Below are positions 6,220 to 37,964 of a DNA stretch of 64,000 bases, piece after piece (within the stretch, counting starts at the first letter, position 1; every line of letters starts with the position of its first letter). The translations under genes were made by a program, and so were the position numbers. The stretch is from Promethearchaeota archaeon. Lineage in GTDB: Archaea; Asgardarchaeota; Lokiarchaeia; Sigyniarchaeales; SOKP01. The notes beneath the pieces are model-generated. The model was not told the origin of the DNA. It saw only the letters and a list, made by a program, of their open reading frames with translations, and did no database searches. The stretch is taken from the NCBI GenBank assembly GCA_048938005.1, contig JBHLMQ010000001.1, forward strand, positions 64,001 to 128,000. Reading direction: 5' to 3'.

Positions 6220-6374
6220 AAGATTCTCCTCATAATTATTGTTTATTCTTCAAGTAAAGATAATTGATTTTATGTTAAAAATTTATTATAAATAATTCAA
6301 AAGACTAGGGAATATTCTAATAGGAAATATAAACTTAAAAGGTGGAGAAATTAATAGTTAATAAATTGTTGTAT

Positions 6375-7184
6375 TTATTGTTCTTGTTTATATACAGGAA
6401 CGATTTTTGAGGTGAATTCTTCCAATGTATATGGAAACTGGTCCTCACTTGATATTTTGCCCAGTTCAAGCATGATTTGCCTTGCCAAGAGCCAAAATGC
6501 TAAACCTAATGCTTTCTTTCCTCGGTTGTTTACGGGAATCGCAAGGTCTATTCCATTAAGAGTATCATCGGTATCAAATAGAGCTACTACTGGAATTCGA
6601 GCTAATTTTGCTTCCCGTAATATTACTTTGTCAGCATGGGGATCAACAATTACTACAACACTCGCATCTTTAATATAGGTATCAATAATAGGATTGGTAA
6701 GTGAACCTGGAATAAATCTTGTAGTTATTGCTCGACATCCTAATACTTCACAGAATTTTTTAACAGGTTCTTTTCCATACCTTCGAACCGAAGTAACGAT
6801 GACTCTATCACTTCCTTCTTCAACGAATTTACTTAAAAATTTAGCTGCAATCTTTAGGCGCTCATCTGTTTGAGTTAAATCAATAACATATAGTCCGTAA
6901 TTAGTTTGTCTATAAATAAACCTTCTAGCATCTCCCGTTAATATTTTTGTTCCAATATGGATGCCACAACTTAAATATAGTTGTTTTCTTTCTTCATCTT
7001 TATCAATTAATTCTTCTTTTGCTTCTATTCCTGCTTCTATATCTTCAGTATCTAATAAATCAAGTTCTTCTTCCAGATCTAAATCTTCTTCAAAATCAAT
7101 CTCAAAATCTTCGCTAAAGTCTTCTCTATCATCAGTTTTTTTTTCTTTTTCTGGTTCTTCAGTTTTCTTTTTCTTTCGAGCCAA
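6375..7184 (-). CDS. rps2: 30S ribosomal protein uS2 with acidic N-terminal extension (TTG start)
   Basis: YLSCGIHIGTK, RFIPGSLTNP, PVNNRGKKALGLAFWLLARQI. Confidence 0.95.
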   Translation of the reverse strand: MARKKKKTEEPEKEKKTDDREDFSEDFEIDFEEDLDLEEELDLLDTEDIEAGIEAKEELIDKDEERKQLYLSCGIHIGTKILTGDARRFIYRQTNYGLYVIDLTQTDERLKIAAKFLSKFVEEGSDRVIVTSVRRYGKEPVKKFCEVLGCRAITTRFIPGSLTNPIIDTYIKDASVVVIVDPHADKVILREAKLARIPVVALFDTDDTLNGIDLAIPVNNRGKKALGLAFWLLARQIMLELGKISSEDQFPYTLEEFTSKIVPVYKQEQ

Positions 7185-13968: not shown

Positions 13969-14589
13969 TCAACCTATTATTTCATCATTGAAATGACTCT
14001 CAAATTCTTTTGATCGTACTATTGTGGCTTGTCTATATCTTTCAAAGCGATTTTCCCATTTAGCATCTACATTAAATGCAACCTTTGCAAAATTAATTGA
14101 TTTAATAGCTTTAGCCAATGGCTCTTGATCTTTTGGACGATATATTTTAATAGGATCTCCAATAGCAATGTTGTTTGGAGGGATAAAAAGATTAGCGGGA
14201 ACAACTGTATTTGCATGAATAAAAGCTCCAACAGCCACTGCAGCGCCAGATTGAACAACAGCACCTTGTAAAATAGTGGCACCTGTTGCTATATATGAAT
14301 TAGACTCAATTTCACACCCAATAAGTGTTGATTGAGGTGAGATAAAGACATGATCTCCAATTATTACTGGATACTCGCGATTTCCTGATGATGTAGCTCT
14401 AAGAACAGCATTTTCACATATTATGGAGTATTCCCCGATTTCGATTTTAGATCCCTCCGAATCAAGAACAGCTCCATACATTATCCGTGAATCTTTTCCA
14501 ATTGAAACTTTCCCGATAATAGTTGCTGTTGGTGCAATAAATACTGAGGAATCAAATATAGGTTTAAATCCTCTATGTTTTATTATCAT
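13969..14589 (-). CDS. Gamma carbonic anhydrase-like/hexapeptide-repeat protein
   Basis: FIAPTATIIGKVSIG and left-handed beta-helix hexapeptide repeats; the usual Zn-ligating His residues are not evident. Confidence 0.8.
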   Translation of the reverse strand: MIIKHRGFKPIFDSSVFIAPTATIIGKVSIGKDSRIMYGAVLDSEGSKIEIGEYSIICENAVLRATSSGNREYPVIIGDHVFISPQSTLIGCEIESNSYIATGATILQGAVVQSGAAVAVGAFIHANTVVPANLFIPPNNIAIGDPIKIYRPKDQEPLAKAIKSINFAKVAFNVDAKWENRFERYRQATIVRSKEFESHFNDEIIG

Positions 14590-14880
14590 CCTTTTTCACC
14601 TAATATTGTTTATAAAATTTTTGATTACAGATCAATTCTACATAATTTAATTTTTGTACATGAAAAAATGAGATTATTTAATTAAATGCTATTTAATATG
14701 TTTAAGATTAATAGGAATTTAAAATTATATCACTAAAATAGGAAAAATTAGATTTATTATGGGAAAATGGGAAAAAAAAAGTTACATTAGAAAAGTATGG
14801 ATTTTCAAAAGAGTTGTTTCTTTCTTACCTTATAAAAATTATTAAAAATGCAATTAATAAAATATTCAATGTAATTCATT

Positions 14881-15411
14881 ATGACTAAAAATTCCATTGC
14901 TCTTATTGGTTTTATGGCTACTGGAAAAACATTAATAGGAAAAGCATTAGTAGAGTACCTTGGTAGTGATTACACATTTATAGAAACAGATCAACTTATA
15001 GTTCAAGAAGTTGGTAAGCCTATTCCTAGAATTTTTGCTGAAGAGGGAGAAAGCAAATTTAGAGAGTATGAGATTTCTGTGTGTGAGAAAGCCTCTAAAT
15101 TAAATAAAGTTGTTATTTCATGTGGGGGTGGAGTAGTTTTGAATAAGGTCAATATTGAAAATTTAAAAAAAAATTGTCATATTGTCTTATTAAAAGCAAC
15201 TCTAGAGGAAATTTATAAGAGAGCTATAAAAAACGGAAAAGAAACTAGACCTGTTATTGATAAAGAAGATCCAAAAAGAGAAATTGAAGAGGCTCTAAAT
15301 TTTCGGAGATCTTATTATGATGCAGCAGCGGAGATCGTTATTGATACAACAAATAAAAAAATTCAGAATATTGTTAGAGAGATTGCTATAAAAACCCTTT
15401 TAAAAACCTAA
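14881..15411 (+). CDS. aroK: Shikimate kinase, bacterial AroK (NMP-kinase fold) type
   Basis: LIGFMATGKT, IFAEEGESKFR, ISCGGG, TRP. Confidence 0.93.
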   Translation: MTKNSIALIGFMATGKTLIGKALVEYLGSDYTFIETDQLIVQEVGKPIPRIFAEEGESKFREYEISVCEKASKLNKVVISCGGGVVLNKVNIENLKKNCHIVLLKATLEEIYKRAIKNGKETRPVIDKEDPKREIEEALNFRRSYYDAAAEIVIDTTNKKIQNIVREIAIKTLLKT

Positions 15412-15470
15412 ATTTAAATTTATCCACTCTACTAAATATTTAAAATATATTATAAAAGGGTAAAGCTATC

Positions 15471-15670
15471 ATGACAGAATATAAAAGAGTAAAATGCCCT
15501 CAATGTGGCAATGATAATCCACGTAAACTTCATGAAGAACCAGATAGGAATAAGGTGCTTTACTACAGTATAGGTAAAGCTATTTCAGCTTACCGCTGAG
15601 GCAGGGCACTCCGGTTTATGCAAAAAACATTAAGTGTGGAGATTGCGGTAATTATTTCAAAAAAAATTAA
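15471..15670 (+). CDS. Small Zn-ribbon protein split by a candidate 29-nt BHB/BHL intron (exons 15471-15571 and 15601-15670; 56 aa spliced)
   Basis: Spliced product MTEYKRVKCPQCGNDNPRKLHEEPDRNKVLYYSMQGTPVYAKNIKCGDCGNYFKKN has paired CxxCG knuckles; the unspliced frame stops at TGA 15597; absent from the ORF track. Confidence 0.8.
15572..15600 (+). other. Candidate archaeal endonuclease-type (bulge-helix-bulge/loop) mRNA intron
   Basis: Central helix CAGU(15566-69)/GCUG(15595-98); 3-nt bulges AU^A and AG^G; intron hairpin GGU-A-AAGCU/AGCUU-ACC; exon stem GUGCUUU(15555-61)/AGGGCAC(15603-09). Confidence 0.75.
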
Positions 15671-15709
15671 TTTATAATTATTTTTTTCTTATTTTTTTAA
15701 TTTTAGTTT

Positions 15710-16915
15710 TCACATTAATGATAAAACAATTTTATTTTGTGCCTTTAGCATATCTCCCATGATAAGTTCCATAGCTTCTTTAATATCTGGATTATTCTCA
15801 GAGATACTACGCTTAGCATTGACACTTGCCATTAATACTTCATTTAATCCACGTAATATCATATCAGGAGAATACCAAGGGCGTTGTGAAGCCCACCATT
15901 GCTGGCAGCTATGAATTCCCCGATCTAACAAATTCCTTGCATTATCGAATATCTTTTTCTTTTCATCATTCATACCATCCCGATATTTAGCTGCTAAATG
16001 AATTAAAGTAAGAGCATACATGAAAAATCTATGTTGTTCGATATGAATTTCATTAGTAGGGTCGAACCAGAGAGGAAAGGGTACATCCTGGATAATATCA
16101 TATGGCATTGTCGACCAACTGGAATCCCGTGGGACTTGAGTGAACCCTTTAGGAAATTTATCGACTATTTCTGAAATTGTACATATTTTCACATCATTTC
16201 GATGTGGTAGTACGCCAAATAACGGTATGAGAAAATTTTTAATTGCATGTTTTACATGGTGCCCAAATGTTTCACCATCCATTGCAAGTATTACATAATA
16301 ATCCTCAGAGGTGTTCTTATAATATAAACGTTTAATAAACGCATCAACGTTGTTAATCTTATCGAAAGCACAATCAATTGAGGTATAATCGTCCCTAAAT
16401 AGTAATTTTAATCCATTTGGATGGATTGATATATTATTCGTAGGAAACTCTGGTAAAGTATTGGCAATACCACTCATAATCATCCAATCAAATCCCGCCT
16501 TTTTAACAATTTTAAATACTTCTACAGAAACCGCCATTTCTGGGGGGAAAAATCCACGAGGCTTAAAAAGTTCCCCAAAAAAATGCCGATTAGTCTCATT
16601 ATTTAACTCTATTTGACGCGTAATTTCAGGTTCCGGAATTAAAGGAAGTAAAGGATGAAATTTACCTGAACCTGTAAATTCAATTTGCCCTCTAGAAGCT
16701 AGAGTAGTAATAGTCCCTATTAGATCATCATATCCAAAATCATGTAATTGTTCAGTTAAGGTTCCATTAATGTTTAGTGTTATTTTTACCTCTGGATGAT
16801 CTGTCAAGGCATTAAAAATAGGTCTATAGGATTCATTAACGATTTGTTTAATTACAGCCGGGATTTGAACTGGAGGTTGATAAATATGAAATAAAAAGGT
16901 AAAATAAACTACCAT
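15710..16915 (-). CDS. Glycoside hydrolase family 57 protein
   Basis: FHIYQP, HPLLPLIP, GFFPPEMA, MDGETFGHH, SSWS, SCQQWW. Confidence 0.92.
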   Translation of the reverse strand: MVVYFTFLFHIYQPPVQIPAVIKQIVNESYRPIFNALTDHPEVKITLNINGTLTEQLHDFGYDDLIGTITTLASRGQIEFTGSGKFHPLLPLIPEPEITRQIELNNETNRHFFGELFKPRGFFPPEMAVSVEVFKIVKKAGFDWMIMSGIANTLPEFPTNNISIHPNGLKLLFRDDYTSIDCAFDKINNVDAFIKRLYYKNTSEDYYVILAMDGETFGHHVKHAIKNFLIPLFGVLPHRNDVKICTISEIVDKFPKGFTQVPRDSSWSTMPYDIIQDVPFPLWFDPTNEIHIEQHRFFMYALTLIHLAAKYRDGMNDEKKKIFDNARNLLDRGIHSCQQWWASQRPWYSPDMILRGLNEVLMASVNAKRSISENNPDIKEAMELIMGDMLKAQNKIVLSLM

Positions 16916-16980
16916 ACTATATATTAAAAAATATATTATTTTTAATCTTCATAGTTTTTTTTTTAAAGGTTATAATTAAT

Positions 16981-17733
16981 TTAAAGATTATTCAGTATTA
17001 AATCATAAATTTCTCTCATTTTTTGGATTTCTATTTGTCCTGATGCTGTTTTTTCCTCAAGGGACGCATATGTAAAAAAGGATCCAGCAATGACACATGT
17101 AATTCTAGAGAAAACACCTAATGTTCCCATACAGAATGAGATAATTTTTTGATTTGAATTTGAGAATTCCTTACACAATTTTAATGGTATTATATTATCC
17201 TCGAAGTTTTGAGCTGTAAAAATAATTTTATAGATATTATCTTTAAGGTTTTTTGGCTCTAAAGATAATTCTTGGTTCAATTTTTTATTAAAATTCTGAA
17301 CCAGATGGATTCCCTCTTCATATGTTAGTGTTTTTTCAAAATTGTGATATGAATAAATTAATTTTACCCCTTTTTGAGACGTTAGATTAAGAATTTCACT
17401 TAAGATGTTTTTATCACTCCTTATTTCTATATCAAGATAATCAGGTTTAGATTCTATAAACATTTTTAAAATTTTTAAGCGATAGTCTTGTTCTATTTCG
17501 ATTTGACCACCTTCTAATGGATCTCTAAAAGTAAAGATAACAGCAGCATGAGGATGAATAATATTCAATAAATCTTTTACGAAATCTATGGTAATAGTTT
17601 TAATATCAGAAATATAATCGAATCTCAATTCAATTAGATTAGGTTCTTCTTTTATTACCTTATTAATTATTGGTTTAACTTCTTTTATCCTTGTATATCT
17701 AATAGGAATCGGAATACAGAGATTATATTTCAT
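16981..17733 (-). CDS. aroD: Type I 3-dehydroquinate dehydratase
   Basis: IELRFDY, IFTFRDPLEGG, SYHNFEKT, FCMG...SRI, TASGQI. Confidence 0.92.
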   Translation of the reverse strand: MKYNLCIPIPIRYTRIKEVKPIINKVIKEEPNLIELRFDYISDIKTITIDFVKDLLNIIHPHAAVIFTFRDPLEGGQIEIEQDYRLKILKMFIESKPDYLDIEIRSDKNILSEILNLTSQKGVKLIYSYHNFEKTLTYEEGIHLVQNFNKKLNQELSLEPKNLKDNIYKIIFTAQNFEDNIIPLKLCKEFSNSNQKIISFCMGTLGVFSRITCVIAGSFFTYASLEEKTASGQIEIQKMREIYDLILNNL

Positions 17734-37871: not shown

Positions 37872-37964
37872 TGGCGGCCCTCGAGGGGAATCGAACCCCT
37901 ATCCCTCCGCAGGATAACTGGGTTTGAAGCCCAGCGTCAGAGACCACTCCAACTGTCAAGGGCC
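37872..37964 (-). tRNA. selC: tRNA-Sec(UCA), 9/4 fold, encoded CCA
   Basis: 9-bp acceptor GGCCCTTGA/TCGAGGGCC, 7-bp D-stem GTTGGAG/CTCTGAC, anticodon loop CT-TCA-AA, long variable arm, 4-bp T-stem, G73-CCA. Confidence 0.96.

Follow-up and report, generated by a model that had tools for sequence, protein, structure and literature searches.

The window analysed here, that is the whole stretch of 64,000 nucleotides at positions 64,001 to 128,000 of contig JBHLMQ010000001.1 from a Promethearchaeota archaeon of the Lokiarchaeia (G000), carries on its forward strand a short zinc-ribbon gene, at 15471-15670, whose coding sequence is interrupted. An open reading frame (ORF) begins with ATG 15471 and ends with the in-frame TGA 15597-15599 (15471..15599), encoding 42 aa that include a single CxxC knuckle; the rest of the protein, with the second CxxC knuckle, lies in the +2 frame from 15602 and ends at the stop codon TAA 15668-15670. 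Excision of the 29 nt at 15572-15600 joins AU and G into a Met codon and gives a 56-aa protein with four Cys. The gene can be read as an exon 1 (15471..15571, +), which contains the start codon and the first knuckle and whose 3' end, AU, provides the first two bases of the split Met codon; a 29-nt intron (15572..15600, +), with predicted cuts between 15571 and 15572 and between 15600 and 15601, and with UGA 15597-15599 in frame if it is left unspliced; and an exon 2 (15601..15670, +), which contributes the G of the split Met codon, an invariant QG.PVY motif, the second knuckle and TAA 15668-15670. A first-pass annotation of this DNA had already described the frame from ATG 15471 to TGA 15597 with its partner half downstream in another frame, as well as the removal of 29 nt that yields the AU+G Met codon and the 56-aa protein with both knuckles. 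All its coordinates and letters agree with the window sequence, and both descriptions are borne out. The evidence presented below makes it very likely that 15572-15600 is a mini-intron of the type excised by the splicing endonuclease EndA (bulge-helix-bulge (BHB) family, relaxed HBh' form) in the mRNA of this zinc-ribbon protein.

The structure expected around such an intron is present at the locus. In the minimum free energy (MFE) fold computed for 15545-15625, which contains every structural element that the first-pass annotation had named, a central helix of 4 bp is formed by an exonic strand, CAGU (15566..15569, +), and an intronic strand, GCUG (15595..15598, +). The 5' strand is followed by a bulge of three nucleotides, AUA (15570..15572, +), which would be cut after its second base and which neither the MFE fold nor the RNAalifold consensus shows as paired. 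The intron itself forms a hairpin (inner helix h', 15573..15594, +) consisting of 4 bp, one bulged base, 4 bp and a 5-nt loop. An outer exon-exon helix pairs GUGCUUU (15555..15561, +) with AGGGCAC (15603..15609, +), starting 4 nt from the central helix on the 5' side and 1 nt from the 3' site on the 3' side. The 3' cut site, AGG (15599..15601, +), also predicted to be cut after its second base, lies within a 4x4 internal loop and does not form a clean bulge; the MFE structure pairs two of its three bases with CU 15563-15564, these two pairs being flanked by an A.A and an A.C mismatch.

The relaxed HBh' motif has been defined by a central 4-bp helix, one intact 3-nt bulge, an adjoining helix and a second cut located in a loop (PMC5829648). 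The locus has this form, which is also called bulge-helix-loop (BHL): CAGU/GCUG, the bulge AUA and an 8-bp hairpin with one bulged base are found, and the 3' cut falls two bases after GCUG, in a loop, as the definition requires. The earlier description of the motif as a relaxed BHL was thus right, since the 3' site sits in an internal loop. A scan of 15300-15800 against Rfam gave no match at E <= 1, either to self-splicing introns or to other curated RNA families.

Orthologs of the gene were searched for in the 54 genomes of the genus, using the 33 residues of exon 1 as a query and a threshold of E <= 1e-8. The gene was found in 49 of them, the five genomes without a match being 58-97% complete, and the orthologs were read in all 49 as well as in one outgroup genome, which belongs to another family of the order. 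In 35 of these 49 genomes, the same site carries an insert, always of 29 nt exactly; there is none in the other 14 or in the outgroup. At the level of the order (154 genomes), the 35 genomes with matches that end at residue 34-37 all belong to this genus; 95 loci of relatives were confirmed by tblastn, and the best 80 of them were kept. In five genomes of the genus g28 with weak best matches, the presence of hidden interrupted orthologs was considered and ruled out, as only full-length paralogs were found. An assembly artefact or a private insertion was likewise ruled out, because the insert occurs in 35 separate assemblies. Interrupted and uninterrupted genes are true orthologs: in 29 of the 30 loci with flanks, and in 5 of the 6 among them that lack the intron, the gene immediately upstream encodes shikimate kinase.

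The intron-less orthologs make it possible to read the junction directly. As the first-pass annotation had anticipated, they read YYS-M-QG at the predicted position, in the 14 genomes of the genus, in the one from the other family and in dozens from other genera, and they place the boundaries of the indel exactly at the predicted junction. At the nucleotide level, they show an AGT or TCN codon followed by ATG CAR GG, which is the product of cutting the intron-bearing sequence after AU on the 5' side and before G on the 3' side. If either cut is placed one base away, the codon becomes Ile or a stop instead of Met. Exon 1 ends with AT in all 35 intron-bearing genes, as does the corresponding stretch in all 15 intron-less ones, and exon 2 starts with G in 35/35; the joined AU+G corresponds to the ATG of the 15 intron-less orthologs read and of 36 further orthologs.

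The structure was then compared across species in a gap-free alignment of 67 columns around the insert, built first with 24 and then with all 35 intron-bearing sequences. Standard pairs are formed in 93.5% of the 665 pair cells, as compared to 25.7-50.1% in slid controls made by shifting the 3' partners 1-3 columns, and changes on both sides are observed at 9 of the 19 pairs (39 cells). None of 500 shuffles reached the observed values of pairing and two-sided change. In the hairpin, 7 of 8 pairs have changed on both sides across the 35 sequences; the central helix is 99.3% paired, with C-G replaced by U-G or U-A, and U-G by U-A or C-G. RNAalifold independently recovers the hairpin along with the central helix and the 5' bulge. 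Within this bulge (15570-15572), positions 1 and 2 are invariant and the third is A, G or U; at the 3' site, 15599 and 15601 are invariant and 15600 varies between A, G and C. The compensatory changes expected of an archaeal endonuclease intron, which had been proposed as a check, are therefore found in these 35 sequences, in the central and inner helices. At the synonymous sites of the outer helix, columns 8 and 58 are paired in 28/35 intron-bearing genes, as compared to 7/15 intron-less genes of the same genus and 24/71 other intron-less genes, and all seven pairs are kept in 23/35, 5/15 and 14/71, respectively. Outer pairing at these two positions is thus commoner in intron-bearing genes.

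When read in the spliced frame, both exons show purifying selection. Among 33 intron-bearing genes (G015 and G016, which have a second insert, were left out), exon 1 has a nonsynonymous rate (dN) of 0.079 and a synonymous rate (dS) of 1.042 over 412 usable pairs out of 528, giving a dN/dS of 0.076, and exon 2, read in the spliced frame, has a dN of 0.110 and a dS of 1.300 over 355 of 528 usable pairs, giving a dN/dS of 0.085. Exon 2 contains no stop codon in the spliced frame in any of the 33 genes, as compared to 28/33 genes with stops in the unspliced frame and 21/33 in the third frame. When the RNA is read unspliced, translation ends inside the insert in 35/35 genes, and the residues encoded by the insert are not conserved. 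The insert is therefore neither private to this genome nor flanked by decaying exons, two outcomes that would have pointed to a simple pseudogene.

In five genomes, further inserts of 30-32 nt are found elsewhere in the same gene, four of them BHB-like and one, in G015, relaxed like the first intron. The second insert of G015 (locus L019) is 31 nt long and located 45 nt downstream of the first intron, with which it shares about 80% identity, the exon context CAGUAU included. The 4-bp central helix, 5' bulge and 3' spacing are those of the first intron, the inner helix has 4 bp and a bulged base, and there is no outer pair. Excising this second insert restores the frame, and it resembles an intragenic duplication or transposition of the intron. 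In G029 (L061), the first intron is missing, and 32 nt are inserted instead two bases downstream of the following Tyr codon, the one that comes after Pro-Val; here UUAU/AUAA forms the central helix, both bulges are AAA, the hairpin has 8 bp and there are two outer pairs. At the position of the G029 insert, loci L118 and L132, from two genomes of another genus, contain 30-nt inserts that resemble each other in sequence and have in-frame stops; the two genomes are probably the two g28 ones that were recorded with stops inside in the order-level survey. The inserts of G029, L118 and L132 all combine a 4-bp central helix, two 3-nt bulges and a hairpin of 8-9 bp. The least certain case is that of G016 (L011), whose 30-nt insert is located either at the G029 position or one codon further, each of the two solutions forming 3 of the 4 central pairs. 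The inserts of 29, 30, 31 and 32 nt demand different frame corrections, and in each case the frame is restored by cuts placed two bases after each strand of the central helix. The presence of 30-32-nt inserts at one site in two genera looks like repeated gain, and the same short gene appears to have taken up other such introns at nearby sites in other species.

As for the 29-nt intron, a tree of 141 alignable coding columns requires three changes of the intron label, as compared to 13.1 when labels are shuffled. Its well-supported branches allow a single origin, and the grouping of intron-bearing genes as one clade is not rejected by the approximately unbiased test (p = 0.418). On this short and weak tree, the simplest reading, and the probable history, is a single gain of the intron within the genus, whether or not a precise loss followed.

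The genome encodes enzymes that could perform the proposed reaction. A family search reveals two paralogs of PF01974 (tRNA-intron endonuclease) and one RtcB ligase (568 bits). The 198-aa EndA paralog (contig 26) aligns end to end with the chain 3p1z_B of Aeropyrum pernix EndA, and keeps the equivalents of K44 and R46 of the specificity loop, of the triad Y125, H133 and K164, and of R157 and W183 of the pocket (roles of these residues according to PMC3241643); it is alpha-like. The 205-aa paralog (contig 56) lacks the catalytic His, as expected of a structural subunit. Asgard archaea have been described as possessing an (alpha-beta)2 EndA with a loop that confers broad specificity, HBh' being one of the relaxed motifs concerned (PMC5829648). 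At the level of sequence, an EndA suited to relaxed motifs and an RtcB ligase are thus both found in this host. In the mechanism that we propose, the exonic CAGU would pair with the intronic GCUG in the pre-mRNA and form a 4-bp ruler between the two cut sites; a heteromeric (alpha-beta) EndA would cut two bases 3' of each helix strand, between 15571 and 15572 and between 15600 and 15601; RtcB would join the exons, creating the AUG of the invariant Met and shifting translation into the frame of the second knuckle; and the 29-nt intron would be released, probably as a circle. The unspliced mRNA would encode only the 42-aa fragment with one knuckle. From the structure and its covariation, the exact junction, the selection on the exons and the enzyme genes, we infer that cleavage and ligation take place and that these enzymes carry them out.

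Several observations weigh against this reading and have to be set beside the evidence above. Splicing is here read from the DNA sequence and is unproven at the RNA level. The 3' cut site departs from a clean 3-nt bulge, and two of its bases could pair with the Tyr codons in most species. The strict hBHBh' motif is therefore not found at the locus, which has the central 4-bp helix, the 5' bulge and the inner helix and 0 outer bp. Five of the seven outer pairs are present in nearly all intron-less genes too, and most of this exon-exon helix simply follows from the conservation of codons. The 35 intron-bearing sequences are close relatives from one genus, and the shuffle counts for that reason overstate their independence; the slid controls and the two-sided changes are sounder evidence than the shuffles. 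On one sequence alone, the motif does not rise above chance: the z-score of the fold is -1.55 and 14 of 200 shuffled sequences are equally stable. Nor is the combination of motif and restored ORF enriched in the genome as a whole. With a geometry of a 4-bp central helix, a 3-nt bulge, at least 5 inner pairs and an intron of 14-70 nt, a genome-wide scan returns 105,051 HBh' motifs, 6,172 of which join two open frames upon excision, as compared to 6,368-6,454 in controls whose 3' cut was shifted by 1-2 nt. A version with stricter helices showed no enrichment over controls, and neither did a codon-usage filter requiring at least 40 open codons on each side (224 motifs, with 209-241 in controls), a filter that excludes the known intron itself. 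Finally, no other copy of the intron and no other interrupted gene was found in this genome with covariance model R1 or blastn-short, and the case is isolated there.

These negative results also bear on how the locus was first noticed. The first-pass annotation had argued that frame constraint and structure agree independently, and had suggested a genome-wide scan for such motifs at apparent frameshifts. The structural and coding elements it relied on are real, but their agreement in a single sequence is no evidence by itself, because both the fold and the scan match their controls, and the scan did not find ORF-restoring motifs to be commoner than in controls. It is the comparative evidence from orthologs that lifts the signal above chance. 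A genome scan made without homology is blind to introns of this kind, and shows neither the presence nor the absence of others. The possibility that the intron is a repeated mobile element of this genome was also tested and rejected, as it is single-copy: covariance model R1 retrieves the locus itself only (94.3 bits; next match 20 bits, E 1.26), and blastn-short of the intron gives only chance matches of 11-17 nt.

Other explanations of the interrupted frame can be weighed against excision by EndA and RtcB. The insert could be kept in the mRNA and crossed by the ribosome, through bypassing of the T4 gene 60 type or a hairpin-stimulated -1/+2 frameshift. Such recoding would account for the in-frame stop at the end of the insert in 35/35 genes, for the conserved hairpin that starts right after the Ser codon and for the need to change frame by +2, and the two readings are easily confused, the cbf5 introns having once been mistaken for frameshifts (PMC2738675). 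It is nevertheless very improbable. Matching take-off and landing codons are lacking (AGU or AUA before the insert, AGG or AAG before CAG), as is a slippery heptamer at the site, and bypassing would not yield the Met that is invariant in all intron-less orthologs, where the split after AU and before G is itself invariant. In eight of the 35 inserts, an in-frame stop occurs sooner, at codon 2 or 5; the insert-coded peptides show no conservation; and the exon-intron pairing CAGU/GCUG covaries, which a downstream stimulator would not need. Inserts of 29, 30, 31 and 32 nt would moreover call for different frame changes, yet all have the 4-bp helix (3/4 pairs in G016) and the 5' bulge; splicing by an endonuclease is favoured over ribosomal recoding because these differing lengths all restore the frame by the same cut rule.

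That the insert is a fixed, unspliced disruption, leaving a conserved split gene or a pseudogene from which the 42-aa exon 1 peptide is made at most, agrees with what gene callers would see, namely an ORF of 42-47 aa, and is hardly credible when the exons are considered: in G000, exon 2 lacks a separate start codon, yet across the intron-bearing genes it shows a dN/dS of 0.085 with 0/33 stops in the spliced frame, the insert is constant at 29 nt in 35 species, the helices covary, and half a ribbon is unlikely to be functional, as the four Cys and the SMQG.PVY core are invariant. A different proposal accepts the removal of the insert from the RNA and attributes it to another nuclease and ligase or to a self-cleaving element. 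The assignment to EndA and RtcB is indeed made by analogy and the 3' site departs from the canonical bulge, but we consider this proposal improbable too. No known self-splicing intron is as small as 29 nt, and Rfam gave 0 matches; both cuts follow the EndA ruler, at two bases 3' of a 4-bp helix (PMC5829648; bioRxiv 10.64898/2026.10.13.758758); and the genome contains an EndA of the broad-specificity type together with RtcB. The IRE1-type RNase domain (PF06479) was not found in the genome, a weak point as control genomes also gave no match.

The EndA-type mini-intron that we favour can be compared with known systems. Introns of 16-44 bp have been described in the cbf5 pre-mRNA of Crenarchaeota (Desulfurococcales, Sulfolobales; PMC2738675, Yokobori et al., 2009). 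Like the present intron, they are flanked by a BHB-like structure, the cbf5 case depending on a heteromeric EndA; they interrupt a conserved, essential part of the protein, are limited to a clade and missing in relatives, and can be mistaken for a frameshift (PMC2738675). The host is here a 56-aa zinc ribbon in Asgard archaea instead of cbf5 in Crenarchaeota, and several introns, including an intragenic near-copy, occur at nearby sites of one tiny gene. Splicing of cbf5 was demonstrated by reverse-transcription PCR and in vitro (PMC2738675), whereas the Asgard intron is known here from DNA alone. The intron is not a member of the cbf5 family: its host gene encodes a zinc ribbon, and the cbf5 homolog of this genome (TruB_N; contig 57, L143, 75780-76121) is uninterrupted, with one open 342-aa frame and no intron of the crenarchaeal type.

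The non-canonical tRNA introns of Asgard archaea share with this intron the presumed EndA and RtcB, the size class and the relaxed motifs, as well as repeated gains where the surrounding RNA can form the motif (PMC11291895; bioRxiv 10.64898/2026.10.13.758758). They differ in their host, which is here an mRNA whose reading frame is changed by the removal; as far as their accessible text goes, those papers treat tRNA genes only, and the word 'mRNA' does not occur in the available text of the 2026 preprint (bioRxiv 10.64898/2026.10.13.758758). In Haloferax volcanii, the HVO_1309 mRNA is also a substrate of the archaeal splicing endonuclease and releases a circular RNA, but its 46-nt intron lies in the 5' untranslated region (UTR) and leaves the coding sequence uninterrupted (PMC7714728). 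As of 2020, cbf5 was described as the only such archaeal mRNA case besides the HVO_1309 5' UTR example (PMC7714728). Full-text searches, which did not cover subscription journals and supplements, returned no report of such introns in Asgard protein genes. If confirmed, the zinc-ribbon gene would be only the second protein-gene family known with such introns in archaea, and the comparative evidence for an intron in an Asgard protein gene is unusually clean.

A parallel is offered by the eukaryotic HAC1/XBP1 mRNAs, from which a short intron is cut by a protein endonuclease, IRE1, at sites defined by a pair of stem-loops, and in which an RtcB-type or tRNA ligase then joins the exons, the change of frame making the active protein. 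IRE1 and the stem-loop pair are replaced, in the mechanism proposed here, by EndA and a BHB motif. RtcB does act in XBP1 splicing (PMC8718801). Regulatory coupling of the XBP1/HAC1 kind is speculation. One wider possibility, which we put forward tentatively and hold to be rather doubtful as a whole, is that the tRNA-splicing machinery also acts on Asgard mRNA, that BHB mini-introns are still mobile and have colonised this 170-nt gene at least 3-4 times, and that splicing is obligatory and possibly serves as a switch, making the event an archaeal counterpart of HAC1/XBP1 frame switching in the lineage closest to eukaryotes. Multiple colonisations are proposed because a 29-nt intron occurs in 35 species, a near-copy of it in one, and unrelated introns of 30-32 nt in two genera, where they lie at the next Tyr-Lys codons. 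Several gains in one tiny gene, including a duplicated intron, would make the question of how BHB introns arrive directly testable, and the gene would be a simple substrate for probing the range of Asgard EndA. In most of these genomes, the gene is expected to be annotated as a fragment of 42-47 aa.

The zinc-ribbon protein itself matches no Pfam or NCBIfam family above cut-off. In the 36 further orthologs, the four Cys and a Ser-Met-Gln-Gly-x-Pro-Val-Tyr core are invariant, and the intron therefore lies in the most conserved part of a single small domain. A profile of these 36 sequences matches residues 287-332 of the PDB chain 7whg_G, 'Lokiarchaeota gelsolin (2DGel)', with E = 3.6e-8, and the C-terminal domain of this chain is the only solved relative of the ribbon family. 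A link to the actin system may be taken as a lead and not as a finding. Two paralogs are present in the genome, one on contig 48 (L002, 640-1647, +), of 335 aa, with two gelsolin repeats and a C-terminal zinc ribbon, and one on contig 44 (L003, 1429-1623, -), a stand-alone zinc ribbon of 64 aa. In the genus g28, paralogous zinc-ribbon matches with a single in-frame TAG or TAA and an unchanged length were observed in G112 (contig 50, twice), G110 (contig 224), G144 (contig 64) and G127 (contig 28); these may be pseudogenes or contain recoded stops.

Around the gene (window 13969-17733) lie genes for a hexapeptide transferase (-), the shikimate kinase (+, directly upstream), a GH57 glycosyl hydrolase (-) and a type I 3-dehydroquinase (-). 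The zinc-ribbon gene is located between aromatic amino acid genes, with no evident functional link. A direct repeat of 11 nt is shared by 15459-15469, just upstream of the start codon, and 15573-15583, at the start of the intron hairpin; it was discarded as meaningful, being one of many 11-mer matches in the genome and not conserved in relatives. With its intron option, ARAGORN reports few tRNA genes in the 3.7-Mb genome (at least 15 among the lines listed), most of them with an intron call (12 calls), which suggests that tRNA genes are heavily interrupted and missed by standard tools, in line with the extensive interruption of tRNA genes known from some Asgard lineages (PMC11291895). The sole tRNA gene that ARAGORN places in the window is a tRNA-Sec gene (anticodon tca) at 37872-37964 on the reverse strand.

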